NCBI GenBank assembly: GCA_951406725.2
Contig: OX597827.1
Location: 78,616,001-78,680,000 of the forward strand
Source: Octopus vulgaris
Taxonomy: Eukaryota
DNA length: 64,000 bases
Reading direction: 5' to 3'
Position 1 is the first letter of the stretch. Every line of letters begins with the position of its first letter. Positions 10,566 through 53,519 of the stretch are shown piece after piece. The notes beneath the pieces were generated by a model. That model did not search any database. It saw only the letters and a program-made list of their open reading frames with translations, and was not told the DNA's origin. The position numbers were made by a program, and so were the translations under genes.

Positions 10566-10583
10566 TATTATTATTATTATTAT

Positions 10584-10614
<31 letters not shown>

Positions 10615-12975: not shown

Positions 12976-13759
12976 GTTTACACTTCCATCAAATAGCTGA
13001 CCATTCTTTAATCCACTTTGGATTATAAGAAAGAATCAGGTTTTAACAAATCTTTAAGATTAGCCCCTTTTATTTAAAATTTTGTTTTTGTCTTGTTACT
13101 TTAGCAATGAAAAATGTCTTCATTAAATTATCTGCATTAATTTTTAATAATTCATTCATTTTATGTTTTTTTCCTTTCTTCCAGGTCTCTTCTCTCTCTG
13201 TTGCTAACAGATTCCTGTCAGATGGTTCCCAGATGTAATTAACCGGATTAAACCGAGCACCTAACAAACCCCTGCAGAAGCTACTCTGTATGTCAATAGG
13301 GGATCTTTGAATAAACTCTTCTGCCAATGTGACAGTGTTCACATCCCAGAGATACCCCTTCGATCCCACCACCACCAAACACACTGTCAATTGACAGAGA
13401 ATCTCCTGAAATCAAAATGTCAAAGAGTTGATGAAATCTTTTGATAATTAATTACCTGTCAACTATGTACCTGTAATTAAGGAACATATGTATGTATGTG
13501 TGTGTGTGCATGTGTTTGAAAATGTGTGTTGACATAAAATCCAACTGTTTGGTTCTTTAGTTTATTTTAGTGTCTGCAGCCAAAGCCATGCTGGAGCAAA
13601 GTAATCCTTTGACCAAAGTACTTTCAGCCTGTGGAACTAGTTGATAACAGATGCTAGACTTGGCAGGGTGGTTTCTTCAGTTCTTCTTCTTGTTATAACG
13701 CTAAAATTCTGCTCTCCTCAACCAAACCTGCCGCTACATAACTCTTCTAAACCATAAAC

Positions 13760-15742
13760 ATGTATTCCGTACAGTCTGTATACACCCCAATGGGGAAACA
13801 GTTTTTTGGAACCTTTGATTTCAATGGTGGTAAAAATTACCCTCCAACTTCGGAGCCCGAGACAGAGACCCCACCTACCAGTACGCCATCATCCAATACA
13901 GGGATTACATCATCAACCAATACAGGAATTACCAACAGTATAAGTTTTATGAACAATTCCTACCAGCATCATCATCACAGACAGATGACCATTCAGCATA
14001 GTTTGGCCCATAAGAAACCATATCGATGTGATATTTGTCGGAAGGGGTTTTCAAGAATGGCTAATTTAACGAACCACGAACGTGCGTCTGCTGCAGGTTT
14101 GAGTCAGACCCACTTCAGTTGTGAATATTGTACAAAGGCATTCAGCCAGCGAGATTATCTGCGGATACACGAACGCGTTCACACTGGAGAGAAACCCTTC
14201 AAGTGTTCAATGTGTGAAAGGTCTTTCAGCCATCAGACCATTCTACAAAACCATGAACGAGTTCATACTGGTGCGAAACCCTACAACTGTGCAATCTGCA
14301 GCAAGACGTTTGCTCACCAGACCACGCTGGTCAACCACCAGCGCATTCACACTGGTGAGAAACCGTATCGGTGTTCGATCTGCAATAAAAATTTTGCTCA
14401 TCAGACTACGCTTATAAACCATGCGAGAACACACACCGGGGAGAAACCATTCAAGTGTTCGATCTGTATGAAAGCGTTCGCTCACCAGACCACGCTGATC
14501 AACCATCAACGTATTCACACCGGGGAGAAAACCTATCATTGCCCGACGTGTCTGAAGACGTTCGCTCATCAAACCACCCTTATTAACCATCAGCGGGTAC
14601 ACACTGGCGAAAAACCTTATAAGTGTTCAGTTTGTGACAAAATTTTTTCCCATCAGACAACACTGACAATTCATGAACGAATCCACACGGGCGAACGTTT
14701 GTACAAATGCAGCCAGTGCGAGAAAAGCTTCACCCATCAAACCACCTTGAAAAACCATGAGCAATGCCATTCACCTGAAAAGGCTTACAAATGTTCGATC
14801 TGCATGAAATCATTTGCCCATCAAACATCTCTGTTGAATCACGAACGTGTTCACACAGGGGAGAAACCTTATCATTGTACAACCTGCTTGAAGACATTTG
14901 CACATCAAACCACACTGAAGAACCACGAACGGACCCACACGGGCGAGAAGCCCTTCACGTGCTCAATATGTCAGAAATCTTTCACACACCAAACTACATT
15001 GCTGAATCATGAGAAGACTCACGTTGGAGAAGTCGTGGTTCCACCAGTCTCAATGTCAGAGAACACTCCCGGAATGGTGTCCCGCACTTCAGGGTCATCA
15101 TCGAACATATTCCACTGCACCATTTGTAGGAAGTCTTTCTCTCACCAAGCAGATTTGAAGAGCCATGAACGAAGTCATGTCTCTTCTGTTGGCAACAGTA
15201 ATAATAATGAAAAGCTCTACAGCTATGATGGTACTTCCTCCAGCAGCATTCAGCCACCGTCTGGGTCTTCTGTTTCACCTGGCGCTGGGGCAGGTGGCGG
15301 CGGCGGCGGTGGTGGTGGCAGCGGCAGCAACACACCAGGGGACAAGACCTACTCTGCCACGTCCTTGACTCAGCATGACTCCGATACTCCACCTTCCAAG
15401 TCTAACTCTCATTCATCTCATAATCGAGGCAGCAGCAGCAACACCAACTCCACGAATCAATCTGCCTCTTCTAATAATGCGGACAAGCACCACAGGGACC
15501 CCAACAGCCATCCATCATCATCCCTTTCTCCGCGATCCAGCGGGTCCCATCAGCAGACTCAGTCCCACTTAACCTCCAACACACCAATGCAGATGTCATC
15601 CTCTTACATCCATCAAATGTCATCCCACTGGGACAACAGTTACAGTTGGCCCAGGGGTTTCCCAGTGTCTTCAGGATGGAGCCCTACGTGGCCTAAACCC
15701 CCTAACCCTATCCCGTCTGTACGACAAAAAGAGTTGACCTAG
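13760..15742 (+). CDS. C2H2 zinc-finger protein ZNF-A (660 aa): 12 canonical fingers plus 1 degenerate N-terminal finger; S/T/N/H/G-rich low-complexity ends with a poly-Gly tract
   Basis: Long ORF with repeated Cx2Cx3Fx5Lx2Hx3H motifs and TGEKP linkers. Start context ATAAACATG. Candidate upstream acceptors TTCCTTTCTTCCAG|G (exon from 13185) and TTTATTTTAG|T (from 13571). About 2.2 kb downstream has no recognisable TEs, consistent with a 3'UTR. Confidence 0.95.
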   Translation: MYSVQSVYTPMGKQFFGTFDFNGGKNYPPTSEPETETPPTSTPSSNTGITSSTNTGITNSISFMNNSYQHHHHRQMTIQHSLAHKKPYRCDICRKGFSRMANLTNHERASAAGLSQTHFSCEYCTKAFSQRDYLRIHERVHTGEKPFKCSMCERSFSHQTILQNHERVHTGAKPYNCAICSKTFAHQTTLVNHQRIHTGEKPYRCSICNKNFAHQTTLINHARTHTGEKPFKCSICMKAFAHQTTLINHQRIHTGEKTYHCPTCLKTFAHQTTLINHQRVHTGEKPYKCSVCDKIFSHQTTLTIHERIHTGERLYKCSQCEKSFTHQTTLKNHEQCHSPEKAYKCSICMKSFAHQTSLLNHERVHTGEKPYHCTTCLKTFAHQTTLKNHERTHTGEKPFTCSICQKSFTHQTTLLNHEKTHVGEVVVPPVSMSENTPGMVSRTSGSSSNIFHCTICRKSFSHQADLKSHERSHVSSVGNSNNNEKLYSYDGTSSSSIQPPSGSSVSPGAGAGGGGGGGGGSGSNTPGDKTYSATSLTQHDSDTPPSKSNSHSSHNRGSSSNTNSTNQSASSNNADKHHRDPNSHPSSSLSPRSSGSHQQTQSHLTSNTPMQMSSSYIHQMSSHWDNSYSWPRGFPVSSGWSPTWPKPPNPIPSVRQKELT

Positions 15743-18439
15743 ATATTCGGCTTTACTTTCAACCCACAAAAATCACATGAGAACGGACATTCATTCACAC
15801 CTGTAGTTTATGAAATTACCTTTCCACCTCAGCCTACGACGGATCTACTCAAACAGTTGTCTTCTAAGACTCTTACCTTTTCTTTTCAATCGCAACTCTA
15901 TCTCACGTCAGCTGCAGCTTTGATGACAGATTCACCTGATTTTTCAAACAGTCATTTCACTACAATTTCTAGGTTGTATCACAAGGCCTTCTTCATCTCT
16001 CTTCTCTCTCACTCACACAAATGTTCCCACAGTCAACCATTTCCCCTCCTTTCTCACTAAATATTTTCAAGTGTCTATATTTGGTGGAAGGTTACCTTAT
16101 TTCAACCAAACTGATCAATACATTTTCAATAATTCAATACAACCTCAATCGATCAACTTGACAACTGTGTAACACTCTCAACGGGGTTGTGCTGTCTGCT
16201 GCAAGTTGCCCGGCCGGTTGGTCGTAGCAGCTACGTAACATCATTGAAATTTGGTTAAAAATTCTAGTTACAGAAGTAAGCATCACCTAGAAACGTGAAT
16301 TAGTGCAGCCAATTATTAAATATATTTTTCAATCCTAGTTGTAATGTGATGATGGCTATCTTACAGTTTTATTTCAAGATGCCGGTGAAAGTGTGAATTG
16401 ATCAACAGCCAGTGGACGTTTTTGCTGTTTTGTAAAGCAGTTTATATTTTACACTTTGTGTATGGATAATGTTACCGAATTTGATGTGGTGAATGAAATT
16501 ACCCAGTTGTATCAGGAGTTGATTTCGTTGAGAAGAAATGAAAGAAAAAAAAACTCTTGTAAAATATGCAAACACGGAGGCGATAAAGTGGAGGAAATTT
16601 GAACCTTTTAATTTAAAACAACAAAAAGTATTGGCTGTCAGCCCTGTAATATGCAAACAAATAATCATTTTTGATTGAAATCATTGAGCTGTATCAACAC
16701 AAGCTGAAATCTAGAAGTTTGGGGACTGGATTTTTTGTGAGTCAACCTAAAATGTTGTGCAGCAGATTCTCTTGTCTTAATGTCAGTCTTACAATTCAAA
16801 CAGTCAACCATCGCATTATAACTGCCACCAGACCTTTTGGACAGCAGTTGCAGTATATTTATGTATTCTATCAAAATGTAACTCCTCTCTCTCTCATACA
16901 TACATTCATACAATGTATATACATACATACATCTATATATATATATATATATATAATATGTTATATAGGAAACAGCTCCTTATTGTCGCATGACAAACTG
17001 AAACAAGAGGAGTCTGACTCGTTTTTGTCTATTATTTGGGATTTTTTTTTCACTTTTACGGTGTCTCATTGCTTCCTTAAAGAATTTATACATTTTAAAA
17101 ATGAAATTGCATCCAATTGGCACTATTAGGGTCAGTTCCACTGTATCCGGCCTGTCTGATGGGGATTTCCCCATGGCAGAGATGCAGCAAGCTGGAACAG
17201 ATGAAAGCATCGCATCAAAGTGAGTGACTTTATTCTCCATCAATTTTTACCATTCCCCCGCCCCCCACTCTCCTCTCCCATAGAATTACCATCTAGGAAC
17301 CACCACTAATAACCGTTTTGTCTGTTGCTGATATCAGCTTGTACTCGGAAGCCTTTAGATGGAAAGTGTAATTTGGTTTTTGTGTTTTGACGAGAAGATT
17401 CTTCCTGGAGCCTAGTCCTTTCCCGATGCCCCTTGTTGAAAAGGGAAGCAGAAACAGTTTCTCCGATTTCCTCAAATGACAAAAAATACAAAACTGAAAG
17501 TGTCACCGTCATGTCTGTACCACCATGCTATTTCATTACCTTTATTCCATCCTGTCATTAATTACTTTGGTCAGGTGTTACAGCATCCTCATCCACCTCA
17601 CACTTTTATTGTTTCAATTCTGTTTTTTTTTAAATATAAATCTGTGTTGGTGGAGAGAAACACAAATGGCTAACGTTTTGTATCACACTCAATCAAGACA
17701 GACATACAAGCAACTTTTACATGCAAATAATAGAAAGAACAGAGCTTTCCATCTGTGTTTACTCCATAACTTTTTTATCTGTAACTCACATTCATACATA
17801 TACATACGTCTGTGTGTGTGTGTATATACAATACATACATGCATGCGTGCACACATTCAAACATTCAAACCATAAGCACCAATGCTTATATAATACTTAT
17901 AAAAATAATTACCATGTTCATTTATAACTCACAGGTATAAAACACAAACAAACTTGATCAGATGCATTATCATTACTTACATGCCTACCTTATATATATA
18001 TATATAAGATCATCATTTCATGTCCACTTTCCATGCTGGCATGGGTTGGACAGTTGAACAAGATCTAACGTATCCAAGGACCACTTGTTGCTCCTGTGTT
18101 TGCTTTGGCAAGGCTTCTAGGGGTCAGAGACCCCCTTCCTAGAATGAACCATTTTATAGTGTCCTGAATACATTTTTCATGACACCAGGTGGGGGTTGCC
18201 TTGTAGGTTATAGACATGAGAGAGCATTGAGAGAATGTAGGTGGGTGGGGAATACCAAAGGAAGCAACACTGTTGGAGAAGGGGAAGAGAAATTTTAGGA
18301 AGAGAGTCAGGGGAGGGGGGGTTAACGTGCTGATAGTAAGGGATTCAGTTAATGGGCCCAGCAATGGGGTGGGTTGATCTGTTTGCTATGCTTGAATGGG
18401 TTAGGCAGTTCTTCAGGGTCGAAATAAGTTCTTATTAGA

Positions 18440-28905: not shown

Positions 28906-29514
28906 CTAGCTTTGTTGTGACTGAGATGATTTCGGAACTTTGATGACGAGGTGATGGGCTTTCGTGTGTTTCACCAACTGACTGTTATCGGGGAACAACA
29001 TGCCACACGGCTTGCAACTGAATGGATTATCCATCCTATGGGAATCCAAATGGGAACGAAGTGTTTCTTTCCGATTGAACTTCGTTTTACAGACATTACA
29101 TTCGTAAAACTGTTGATGTAGGTGAATGCTCCTATAATGACGCGTCAAAGCTCCAGCTTGATGAAACTTAAAACCACAGTCAGGGCACTCGTGGCTGGCC
29201 TCCCTCGTATGTACAGCCATATGAAGCTTCATATTCGACTCCACCTTGAAGGCTCTCTTACAAATCTCACAAGCATATGGACGGGCAGACGAATGGGTCG
29301 CTTCGTGCTTTTTCAGGTGATGCGTTTGATAGAAACGTTTTGCACAATGACTACACTTCAACTTTCGAAGGAACAAGTGCGCCGGTTTATGGGTCCTCGC
29401 ATGGGCCCTAGATGAAAACACCTTCTCACACACATCACAATAAAAACCATTTTCGATTATTTTCTTCTTAACTGTTACTGGTTCCTCATTTCCAGTTGCT
29501 GTGGAGGCCTGCAT
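28906..29514 (-). CDS. C2H2 zinc-finger protein ZNF-B (202 aa, 6 fingers)
   Basis: Six C2H2 motifs, finger 4 of HX4H type (HECPDCGFKF...HYRSIH). Acceptor TTGGCTTTCAG| 30 nt upstream of the ATG (exon from 29544). Confidence 0.92.
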   Translation of the reverse strand: MQASTATGNEEPVTVKKKIIENGFYCDVCEKVFSSRAHARTHKPAHLFLRKLKCSHCAKRFYQTHHLKKHEATHSSARPYACEICKRAFKVESNMKLHMAVHTREASHECPDCGFKFHQAGALTRHYRSIHLHQQFYECNVCKTKFNRKETLRSHLDSHRMDNPFSCKPCGMLFPDNSQLVKHTKAHHLVIKVPKSSQSQQS

Positions 29515-29865
29515 CCCTATTTGAAAATTTCTCTTCTGCTGCAGCTGAAAGCCAACGGAAATATTTCATTAAACAAGAGAACAGCAATGGTGGTCAACCG
29601 GCAGAAATTAGAGAATGTCAAACAAAATGCTTTGTGGTCTTTATTTTATGTTCTGAGTTCAAACCCCACTAACATCAACTTCACTTTCATCGTTTGAGGG
29701 TCAACTGGGGTCCATATAAAAATCTGGTGGGTTAACCCTCAAAAAATAGCAAATTGGGGTCCCACTGTAATATTTTAAGAGCTGATGAAAAAAAAGTTTG
29801 CTTTCATAGAAAATATCCTAAGTTCTCAGAGAAAGAAAATAAATTTTCAAAGTACAAATAAAACA

Positions 29866-42789: not shown

Positions 42790-44007
42790 TGAGGGTCAGC
42801 TGAAAAGTTCAGAGGCTGAGCAAGATACTTTCATGGAATGTGACCAAATGAGGTTTATTTTTCAACATAGTCCCCCTCACGGTCCACACACTTCTTCCAT
42901 CGGTGTTGAAGTGCTTGGATCCCATTGGTGAAGAAACTTTCATCCCGTTGGTTAAAAAAGTCATCAACTGCACACATGACATCATCATCACTGCGATGCT
43001 GCTTCCCAGCCAAGTGTTTTTTCATGTTGGGGAACAGATAATAGTCAGATGGGGCCAAATCGGGAGAGCAAGGAGGGTGATCAACCACTTCAAAGCCACA
43101 ATCACGCACAACAGCCATTGAAACCAAGGACTTGTGTACTGGAGCATCGTCCTGATGAAACAAGACCCCTTTTGCCAGTTTCCCTGGGCGTTTGATCTTC
43201 AAAGCCCTTTTTAACTGCCTCAGCAAGTTGGCATAGTACTCTCCATTGATGGCATGCCTCTTTTGAAGATAGTCAATAAACACAATACCTTTTGCATCCC
43301 AAAAAACTGAGGCCATCACCTTCCCTGCAGGTGAAATATTCTTGGCCTTCTTTGGTGCAGGTGGAGAGGTGAGTTCCTTTGTCTCAGGTTCAAAATGATG
43401 AACCCAGCACTCACCCTGGGTTAGGAAACGTTCAAGAAAATCAGCTGGATCTGCCTCAAACAATGCCAGATTTTCCCGTGATGTGATCAACCTGGTGTCT
43501 TTTTGATCAGATGTCAGAAGACGCGGCACCCACCGAGCAGAAACCTTCAACATGCCAAGTTCCTTATGCAGAATATTCTCAACTCTCTCACGGGATATCC
43601 TAATAGCATTGGCTATTTGATTTATAGTCAACTGCCTGTCATCCATCACCATGTGGTGAACACGATCAATGTTTTCCTCGGTGGTGGCAGTTGCAGGACG
43701 TCCAGACCTTGAATCATCTTCAAGATTTTCCCTTCCCTTCCGAAATTCCGCTGCCCACTTTTGCACTGTCGATAAAGCTGGAGCATCATTCCCTAATGTA
43801 GCAACCATGTCAGCATGAATGTCCTTGGGGGCTAAACCCTTTTTCTGCAGGTACTTGATAACACCACGATGCCAAATTTTGTCCATTCTACCTGGAAAGA
43901 AATAATACCGTTATTAATAAGAAGTGTTGAAATTAAGGCATGCAATGTTTCACAGCTCTAGCATCACTCCTTCAGAGTCAGCCTAGGAACTTTACAACCC
44001 ATCCTCG
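42790..44007 (-). mobile_element. Near full-length mariner DNA transposon (~1.2 kb)
   Basis: Imperfect ~30-bp TIRs (TGAGGGTCAGCTGAAAAGTTCAGAGGCTGA versus reverse complement CGAGGATGGGTTGTAAAGTTCCTAGGCTGA). Flanked by TA and CA (mutated TA). The empty site is visible in the paralogous segment at ~32720-32755. Confidence 0.9.
42855..43886 (-). CDS. Mariner (DD34D) transposase, 343 aa, ORF open but first catalytic Asp replaced
   Basis: Motifs WVPRLL, GKVMASVFWD, LFHQDDAPVH and SPDLAPSDYYLF. The expected xDExW motif reads TQGECW. Confidence 0.88.
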   Translation of the reverse strand: MDKIWHRGVIKYLQKKGLAPKDIHADMVATLGNDAPALSTVQKWAAEFRKGRENLEDDSRSGRPATATTEENIDRVHHMVMDDRQLTINQIANAIRISRERVENILHKELGMLKVSARWVPRLLTSDQKDTRLITSRENLALFEADPADFLERFLTQGECWVHHFEPETKELTSPPAPKKAKNISPAGKVMASVFWDAKGIVFIDYLQKRHAINGEYYANLLRQLKRALKIKRPGKLAKGVLFHQDDAPVHKSLVSMAVVRDCGFEVVDHPPCSPDLAPSDYYLFPNMKKHLAGKQHRSDDDVMCAVDDFFNQRDESFFTNGIQALQHRWKKCVDREGDYVEK

Positions 44008-52055: not shown

Positions 52056-53519
52056 TTAAGTGTTCATTTTCGCATGAGATTTCTTATGTTTCAATAGGTG
52101 GCTGCCATCTGTGAACTTCTTGTCACAAATGTCACAGCTATACGGCTTCTCCCCAGTATGGATCCGTTGGTGCCTGCGAAGGTCAAAGCCTCGAGCAAAC
52201 TTTTTCCCACAGACATCACATTCGTAAGGTCTGAGGCCGGTGTGGCTACCTCGATAATGGGAGTTCAGATGACTGATCTCACCAAATCTGAAGCCACAAA
52301 TAGGGCATTCGTGGGGTTTCTCTCCCGTGTGGCTTCTGTGGTGACGAGTCAGATCACACCGTTTTCTAAAGCTCTTCTCACAAATATCACAGACAAATGG
52401 CCGAATCGAAGAATGCGTTAGCAAGTGAGCCTTCAAATGACTATTCTGGAGAAAACGCTTATCACACTGTTCACACTTGAATCGTCGTTCACCAGAATGT
52501 GGCCGGTTATGAGTATGGAGATGGTTGCCTTTAGAATACAGATTCTGACAGATGTCACAAAAGTACAGTTTGCTTGTTTCGCCCTCCACCTTCACTTTAA
52601 CAGCCCCTGATTGGCTGGTTTTATTGTCCTGACATGGTTGATTAGTCATATTGTCCTGACACGGCTGACTGGTCGTATTGTCACGACATGGCTGATTGGT
52701 CATATTGTCACGACACGGCTGACTGGTCATATTGTCACGACACGGCTGACTGGTCATATTGTCACGACATGGCTGACTGGTCATATTGTCACGACATGGT
52801 TGACTGGTCATATTGTCACGACACGGCTGAGTGCTTGAACTGTCTTGACATGCTTGCCTGTTGGCCATGTTATTTTGACATTGTTGTCGACTGCTACTTT
52901 CCTGGCATGCTTGACTAGTCATATTGTTTCGACATGGTTGATTAGTCCTGGTGTCTTGACATGCCTGATTGGTCATATTGTTTCGACACGGCTGACTGGC
53001 CATATTGTTCCTGCATGTATGACTGGCCATACTGTTCCGACATGGTTGGTTACTGGTCCTGTTTTGACACTGACTTGTCATACTGTTCTGACATAGCTGA
53101 CTGGTAATATTCTGACACAGTTGATTGGTCATATTATTCTGACACGGTTGATTGGCCATATTGTTCTGACAAGACTGACTTGTGGTCCTATTGTTCTGAA
53201 ACGCTTGGCTGGTGGTGCTGTTCTGACACGGCTGACTGGTCGTACTGTTCTGAAATGGCTGAATGCTTGCATTACCTTGAAATGCTTGACTGGTCGTATT
53301 ACTTTGAAACGGTGGACTGTTGCTGTTGTCTTGAAACGGCTGGTTGCTTATATTGTTCTGAAACGACTGAGAGCTGGTGGCCGCAGGGTTGAGCAAGTTC
53401 TTGTTGGACTTTTTGCAGCCCTGCATCATAGCATCCACATTGGCAGCAGCAACAGCCCCACCAGCGTCACTTTCACTGAGGTTCGGTATGGGGAAAAGGT
53501 CCATTGTTACAATGTTCAA
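52056..53519 (-). CDS. C2H2 zinc-finger protein ZNF-C (487 aa, 6 C-terminal fingers, N-terminal 9-aa tandem repeat domain)
   Basis: Six C2H2 motifs with TGEKP-type linkers and a VKVE SUMO-consensus before the fingers. Acceptor TTTTCTCTTTGTTTTCCAG|G (exon from 53951). About 2.5 kb of TE-poor sequence downstream ends at AATAAA (49574-49579, - strand). Confidence 0.95.
   Translation of the reverse strand: MNIVTMDLFPIPNLSESDAGGAVAAANVDAMMQGCKKSNKNLLNPAATSSQSFQNNISNQPFQDNSNSPPFQSNTTSQAFQGNASIQPFQNSTTSQPCQNSTTSQAFQNNRTTSQSCQNNMANQPCQNNMTNQLCQNITSQLCQNSMTSQCQNRTSNQPCRNSMASHTCRNNMASQPCRNNMTNQACQDTRTNQPCRNNMTSQACQESSSRQQCQNNMANRQACQDSSSTQPCRDNMTSQPCRDNMTSQPCRDNMTSQPCRDNMTSQPCRDNMTNQPCRDNTTSQPCQDNMTNQPCQDNKTSQSGAVKVKVEGETSKLYFCDICQNLYSKGNHLHTHNRPHSGERRFKCEQCDKRFLQNSHLKAHLLTHSSIRPFVCDICEKSFRKRCDLTRHHRSHTGEKPHECPICGFRFGEISHLNSHYRGSHTGLRPYECDVCGKKFARGFDLRRHQRIHTGEKPYSCDICDKKFTDGSHLLKHKKSHAKMNT
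52612..53372 (-). repeat. Coding 27-bp minisatellite (~28 units, consensus SQPCRDNMT / SQPFQNNTT) in ZNF-C
   Basis: Plus-strand unit TGGTCATATTGTCACGACACGGCTGAC repeated near-perfectly at ~52640-52830 and degenerately further on. Confidence 0.95.

Follow-up and report, generated by a model that had tools for sequence, protein, structure and literature searches.

C2H2 proteins that bind simple repeats are already known, as is the internal duplication of finger arrays. PRDM9 combines near-identical DNA repeats and hypervariable contact residues with a SET domain. The octopus gene analysed here, ZNF-A, resembles it in having many similar fingers in one exon, but its pattern is the opposite and it is without SET. 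ZNF384 and ZNF362 have near-identical helices. Like ZNF-A, they are ancient non-KRAB tandem C2H2 proteins, and the simple repeat enriched at their sites is poly-A (PMC13444102). While they form a two-gene vertebrate family linked to a mononucleotide run, ZNF-A has ten uniform fingers with a predicted triplet target and belongs to a varied family of about 40 members. ZNF191/ZNF24 binds the (TCAT)n microsatellite HUMTH01, with length-dependent effects on transcription (PMC2694838); it is a SCAN-domain protein encoded by a single gene, whereas ZNF-A lacks SCAN and sits in a family. ZNF775 and ZNF721 contain internally duplicated arrays, that of ZNF775 being conserved in mammals and sub-arrays of ZNF721 matching alpha satellite, and long C2H2 arrays in general often use sub-arrays (PMC13541613). 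In these two proteins the duplicated units diverge in specificity, while the contacts of ZNF-A stay identical as its silent sites saturate.

As for cephalopods, C2H2 genes have been described on the protocadherin chromosome (PMC9068888). The family of ZNF-A is probably one of the four coleoid-shared C2H2 clusters of PMC12513265, a paper whose main text does not contain the words 'helix', 'motif' or 'satellite' and which names target identification of the cephalopod ZNF expansions as future work. Our literature search, which covered mostly non-subscription journals and, for PMC12513265, the main text, returned no paper describing cephalopod ZNFs that have uniform helices or read repeats, and no family whose paralogues would each suit a repeat period of their own.

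ZNF-A lies in a stretch of 64,000 nucleotides (hereafter the window; G000:C14:78,616,001-78,680,000) of the 2.8-Gb Octopus vulgaris genome, with two of its exons outside. Its parts are the following:

G000:C14:78,614,5xx and 78,607,7xx: two alternative 5' exons, outside the window (mapped contig ends)
13185..16850, forward strand: large single exon that holds some of the 5' UTR, all of the coding sequence and at least 1.1 kb of the start of the 3' UTR (contigs)
13760..15742, forward strand: coding sequence, a single ORF of 660 aa with 13 C2H2 fingers (ORF list, Pfam)
13760..13822, forward strand: N-terminal family motif MY[PS]xQ..Y.MG.QF, common to most paralogues
14027..14182, forward strand: finger 1, which is degenerate, and finger 2, which is atypical, as in many paralogues
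14204..15022, forward strand: fingers 3 to 12 (F3-F12), ten in tandem at exact 28-residue spacing, helix HQT[T/I/S]Lx[N/I]
15116..15178, forward strand: detached finger 13, helix HQADLKS
15605..15691, forward strand: C-terminal Trp-rich family motif Y.H.M...W[ED]N.Y.W.RGF....W (alignment of 23 members)

The array is of the Kruppel type (C-x2-C-x12-H-x3-H, F and L core, TGEKP-type linkers, 28-residue spacing) and is flanked by low-complexity sequence. Finger 1 (14027) is without the second His, finger 2 has the helix QRDYLRI, and finger 13 stands 52 residues beyond finger 12. At the curated cut-offs Pfam gave zinc-finger families alone, with no KRAB, SCAN, BTB or SET and no known N-terminal effector domain of the KRAB/SCAN/BTB/ZAD type. 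The Trp-rich motif, a putative co-factor-binding motif, matched octopus, Argonauta and cuttlefish proteins, with no match in Pfam or Atlas.

The gene is expressed, as judged from splice joins in contigs of RNA-type runs, no run being on record as RNA. Such contigs, from three studies, cover 13185-13478 and 13520-16850, with a gap at a TG repeat. In 3/3 non-DNA runs they have loose 5' ends at 13183/13185, behind a ttccag acceptor, while a DNA run reads on through. Each loose end maps once in the genome, to a 5' exon 14.6 or 21.4 kb upstream that is followed by a GT donor, from which splicing and expression can be inferred. One RNA-type run differs from the genome by A>G at 14641, 14642 and 14823, changes that are absent from a DNA run of another sample. 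They are, respectively, silent, I>V in the scaffold of finger 8 and Q>R at +1 of finger 10; the contigs of a second run are interrupted at 14640/14643. A-to-I editing is possibly the cause.

Other genes were also seen in the window. A second ZNF on the reverse strand (52056-53519) combines six mixed fingers with about 24 N-terminal copies of a 27-bp repeat, whose unit encodes nine residues of QPCRDNMTS type including a Cys. Six mixed C2H2 fingers of non-uniform type are also encoded by an exon at 28906-29565 (reverse strand). At 42855-43910 (reverse strand) there is an open mariner-type transposase frame of 351 codons, with TQGECW in the region of the first catalytic motif; it is probably inactive, because TQGECW departs from the active motif.

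Fingers 3 to 12 carry, in order, the helices HQTILQN, HQTTLVN, HQTTLIN (three times), HQTTLTI, HQTTLKN, HQTSLLN, HQTTLKN and HQTTLLN. The residue counts of the first-pass annotation are exact (H at -1, Q at +1 and T at +2 in 10/10, T at +3 in 8/10, N at +6 in 9/10), and the synonymous codon differences that it reported among these fingers are present in the sequence. Mean identity at the contact positions (-1/+2/+3/+6) is 0.856, a value reached by 0/20,000 random draws of ten fingers each from 401 fingers of the same family (maximum 0.72). In the best window of eight fingers, contact identity is 0.88 for ZNF-A, at most 0.49 for 17 other octopus ZNFs and at most 0.74 in 131/240 database matches with at least eight fingers. 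N at +6 (211/455 fingers) and T at +2 (108/455) are family defaults, and therefore only H at -1 and T at +3 are specific. A PDB search with ZNF-A gave generic arrays only, and its three best alignments were without a similar helix.

Searches with the C-terminal and N-terminal parts of ZNF-A collected at least 43 family loci with finger arrays, i.e. about 40 paralogues, all on C14 (32 + 11); three of the 43 are partial and one, L106, is doubtful. One further locus, L160, was dropped as not being a member, and three loci on C4 and C6 with weak matches to the C-terminal motif were dropped because they are without finger arrays. Hallmarks of the family are N-terminal MY[PS]xQ, an often degenerate finger 1 and the Trp-rich C-terminal motif. 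Family genes lie at 0.27-0.33, 15.3-15.4 and 75.7-78.9 Mb of C14, the protocadherin chromosome, directly bordering its two protocadherin clusters, which extend over about 0.6-15.1 and 79.0-82.0 Mb; about 370 kb separate ZNF-A itself from the closest cadherin match. A profile of the C-terminal motif, run against 1.84 billion proteins, gave 18 matches, of which 10 are true family members (among them three from Acanthosepion pharaonis, one from Argonauta and two from Octopus). Judged from these sequences, the family is common to octopods and decapodiforms.

None of these ten proteins carries an HQT array. As for an orthologue of ZNF-A, three word-indexed protein searches, other Octopus species included, yielded generic fingers at best, two start variants had no exact match among proteins, and a run of another organism compared with ZNF-A at 80% showed short cross-matches only. 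Atlas contains the ZNF-A sequence, in generic clusters only. These blanks do not show absence, since exact look-up found only 1/10 paralogues.

The octopus-cuttlefish split is about 270 million years old. Across it, one paralogue (L085) was compared and its helices are frozen finger by finger: against the cuttlefish orthologue, which is 296/300 identical to a named cuttlefish protein, there are 2/56 contact changes, both in the atypical first finger, and 23/140 scaffold changes. Against O. bimaculoides and O. sinensis the same array has 0/354 residue changes, and three others (L074, L080, L098) are similarly frozen within octopods. In the cuttlefish orthologue of L085 (P0246, P0263-P0267), finger 3 shows Q>R at +1 and N>S at +3 between assemblies, and finger 4 shows H>R; all of these are compatible with A>G, and RNA recoding of a recognition helix is possible. 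Also, in L073, L077, L081, L083, L085 and related loci of C14, one or two linkers per unit are shortened by one residue (HTG-G[DE]LF). In these arrays, which have a four-finger period, each shortened linker stands before a finger whose +2 residue is I, V or F, and this may reflect a change in finger register or packing.

Other paralogues repeat a helix of their own, for example HQTNLxx nine times (L100), QRANL[D/N/H]I (L089), Q[KR]ANLxN (L096), R[NK]DKLK[IL] (L101) and QKSYL.K (L091); L157, L069 and L099 are likewise built on single helices. The helix type of ZNF-A recurs in L149, with H[QKR][ST]TLxN in 10/12 fingers on the least similar scaffold. In ZNF-A the helix has period one, and this helix period is compatible with a DNA repeat period. 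A simple helix code predicted ATT for L149, CAT for L100, AAT for L157 (too short for the code run and decoded by hand), TAA for L089, AAA for L096 and L069, TGG for L101, GGA for L091 and ATA/ATT for L099; the fragments L153, L156 and L159 were excluded from the run. The code was fixed after the helices had been seen, and for that reason p-values based on it are not independent.

In four further paralogues the unit is four fingers long; its hydrophobic residue stands at -1 in one finger, at +3 in the next and at +6 in the third, and is missing from the fourth. These units decode from the N- to the C-terminus as AAT, ATA, TAA and AAA, which is (AAAT)3 in register. The hydrophobic shift is thus suggestive of the register shift predicted to be needed for reading (AAAT)n in 3-bp steps. 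Shuffling of finger order gave p = 0.10 (L071), 0.006 (L073), 0.03 (L077) and 0.01 (L086), values that count as one suggestive case and not as four tests, because the code is post hoc, many periods were tried and the genes share ancestry; moreover, the outgroup gene L024 and two T-rich outgroup genes also scored against their own pool. Three further observations speak against the reading: eight arrays with NQFFLK fingers (L072, L076, L078, L080, L081, L083, L084, L088) gave no simple-repeat decoding, AAAT, the repeat with the best decoding, is rare, and AT, AC, ACAT and AGAT, the commonest repeats of the genome, are without a clearly decoded reader in the family. Alternating helices with a two-finger period were observed in L079, L090 and L074 (C14 at 77.58, 77.33 and 51.58 Mb), and these arrays could read dinucleotide or hexanucleotide repeats.

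We favour the reading, at a probability of about 0.55, that the old and selected ten-finger array of ZNF-A binds runs of an AT-rich triplet, predicted from its sequence to be either ATT or an ATT/AGT mix. According to this reading, an ancestral family finger would have been duplicated inside the gene long ago, and each finger would now recognise A-[T/G]-T, advancing by 3 bp from one to the next. Used in full or in sliding sub-arrays, the ten fingers would match microsatellites of (ATT)n and of compound (ATT/AGT)n type, longer tracts being more occupied, and the conserved C-terminal Trp motif might bring a chromatin or transcription co-factor. Paralogues might do likewise for other simple repeats. 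A periodic target is likely because of the family context, in which paralogues carry different uniform or periodic helices. ZNF384/ZNF362 on poly-A and ZNF191 on (TCAT)n serve as precedents. The earlier proposal of an array selected to bind a pure triplet repeat gains from this context as regards periodicity, though not as regards (AGT)n specifically. More tentatively, a coleoid family of about 40 genes, older than the octopus-cuttlefish split, may divide simple-repeat space among its members (poly-A, ATT/AGT, TAA, CAT, TGG and GGA for the uniform arrays, tetranucleotides for those with a four-finger period), with repeat length feeding into regulation and ZNF-A as the reader of ATT/AGT.

We consider it rather unlikely that the fingers are redundant modules, three or four of which bind short or degenerate AT-rich sites, or that they serve RNA or protein contacts. 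Human C2H2 proteins as a rule make alternative use of their sub-arrays, and about 25% of them have internally duplicated fingers (PMC13541613); a role of this kind would agree with a family default helix predicted to read A-rich DNA and with abundant di- and tetranucleotide repeats that are without decoded readers. However, all four contact positions are kept throughout a series of ten fingers spaced by exactly 28 residues, it is precisely at -1, +3 and +6 that the paralogues differ, and the register-shifted order of the four-finger units would be superfluous for generic AT-rich or protein binding.

That ZNF-A is instead specialised on pure tracts of (AGT)n = (TAG)n/(ACT)n, acting by the same mechanism with a middle G, appears improbable. 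The first-pass annotation had named (AGT)n as the most plausible target on the strength of the engineered helix HRTTLTN, which Table 1 of PMC7317221 indeed assigns to AGT and which agrees with ZNF-A at -1, +2, +3 and +6. This is one engineered module in another context, whereas the simple code gives ATT. What Asn at +6 reads depends on its context (PMC4330361), and a helix engineered for CAT did not work when its context was changed (PMC3919609), points that count against the ATT prediction as well. The searchable supplements held no one-hybrid data on a helix of the ZNF-A type. Where a middle G is predicted, family fingers have H, K, Y or R in position +3, which together with the T, I or S of ZNF-A at this position favours T as the middle base. 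If the target is a triplet, then ATT or degenerate A[T/G]T is the probable form of it, and pure AGT an unlikely one.

Repeat counts bear on the same question. In a 400-kb sample, ATC (59 tracts), AAT (58) and ACC (11) led the triplet classes, and the ACT class, with 6 tracts, was about ten times rarer than AAT; other counts were AT 276, AC 106, ACAT 71 and AGAT 30, with 1 AAAT and 0 AGG tracts of at least 18 bp. Over 40 stretches of 10 kb, tracts of at least ten units numbered 36 for ATT, 41 for mixed A[GT]T and 5 for AGT, so long AGT tracts do exist, and the AAT-class predictions for L089, L099 and L157 leave room for an AGT specialist. The (AGT)7 tract previously pointed out upstream of the gene is real (10584-10604), and belongs to a longer feature:

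10566..10613, forward strand: compound (ATT)6(AGT)7(GGT)n tract, intronic and at background density

It carries no weight as evidence for AGT. With 5' exons 14.6 and 21.4 kb upstream of ZNF-A, the tract falls in a 5'-UTR intron; 0.96 AGT tracts of that kind are expected per 64 kb and 1 was seen, the chance of one within 3.2 kb upstream of ZNF-A being about 5%. An (ATT)8 tract lies nearer to the gene. We rejected the (AGT)7 tract as an autoregulatory site on the same grounds, its intronic position and background density. ATT tracts were also compared with SINE tails, but the association is weak, 4/67 tracts following the SINE-end word.

As to age, four-fold sites differ between fingers 3 to 12 at 182/251 positions (0.725, against a saturation expectation of 0.748), and the lowest pairwise pS is 0.57. 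At the same time pN for the contacts (-1/+2/+3/+6) is 0.068, compared with 0.006 for structural residues, 0.208 for linkers and 0.402 for the remaining variable positions, so that the contacts are about six times more constrained than the latter (contact/scaffold ratio 0.17). The helix of these fingers is under purifying selection across fingers. In outgroup octopus ZNFs the contacts diverge 1.63-4.65 times faster than the scaffold in 18/18 genes, at an unsaturated four-fold divergence of 0.14-0.52; 19 such genes had been taken as top search matches, not at random, and one was dropped for too few fingers. ZNF-A thus lacks the low silent divergence and fast contacts of young octopus-specific ZNFs. 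Among 31 family genes measured, the contact/scaffold ratio is 0.11-1.09 and four-fold divergence, 0.63-0.83, is near saturation. Scaffold identity is 0.48 within the ZNF-A array, 0.51 to L089, which has a different helix, and 0.34 to L149, which has the same helix type. As identity within the array is no higher than that to L089, the scaffold no longer records the duplication and the helix alone has been kept uniform.

A historical accident, i.e. ancient internal duplication of one finger under ordinary structural constraint and no selection for a periodic target, is very improbable. Internal duplication is common (PMC13541613), N at +6 and T at +2 are shared with the family, and F6/F10 and F7/F11 are mutual close scaffold matches, a trace of block duplication. 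Structure does not demand what is seen at -1, +3 and +6, though: these positions vary widely among paralogues and are the fastest-changing in the 18/18 outgroup ZNFs, whereas in ZNF-A the contacts are nearly as fixed as the zinc ligands despite saturated silent sites.

Recent expansion or gene conversion of a PRDM9-type coding minisatellite can be dismissed almost with certainty: the 84-bp period found by Tandem Repeats Finder at 14249-14628 has only 69% matches, and single contigs span the array gap-free in two RNA-type runs from two studies and in one DNA run, possibly the source of the assembly. With 182/251 four-fold differences, fixed contacts and no SET match, ZNF-A is unlike PRDM9-type genes. 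The array is old and selected, as its silent sites are saturated and its contacts constrained, the reverse of the 18/18 young ZNFs. The earlier view that it is no recent expansion is borne out by the saturated four-fold sites, and the check for homogenisation by gene conversion, i.e. for low inter-finger dS, revealed none, no pair of fingers having a pS below 0.57.

The family context is a stronger result than the single gene, and makes the idea of repeat reading directly testable. If it is true, the family would offer a natural set on which to calibrate the zinc-finger code in its poorly predicted A/T-rich part, and in cephalopods, whose genomes are unusually rich in such repeats, the length of a microsatellite would feed directly into regulation.
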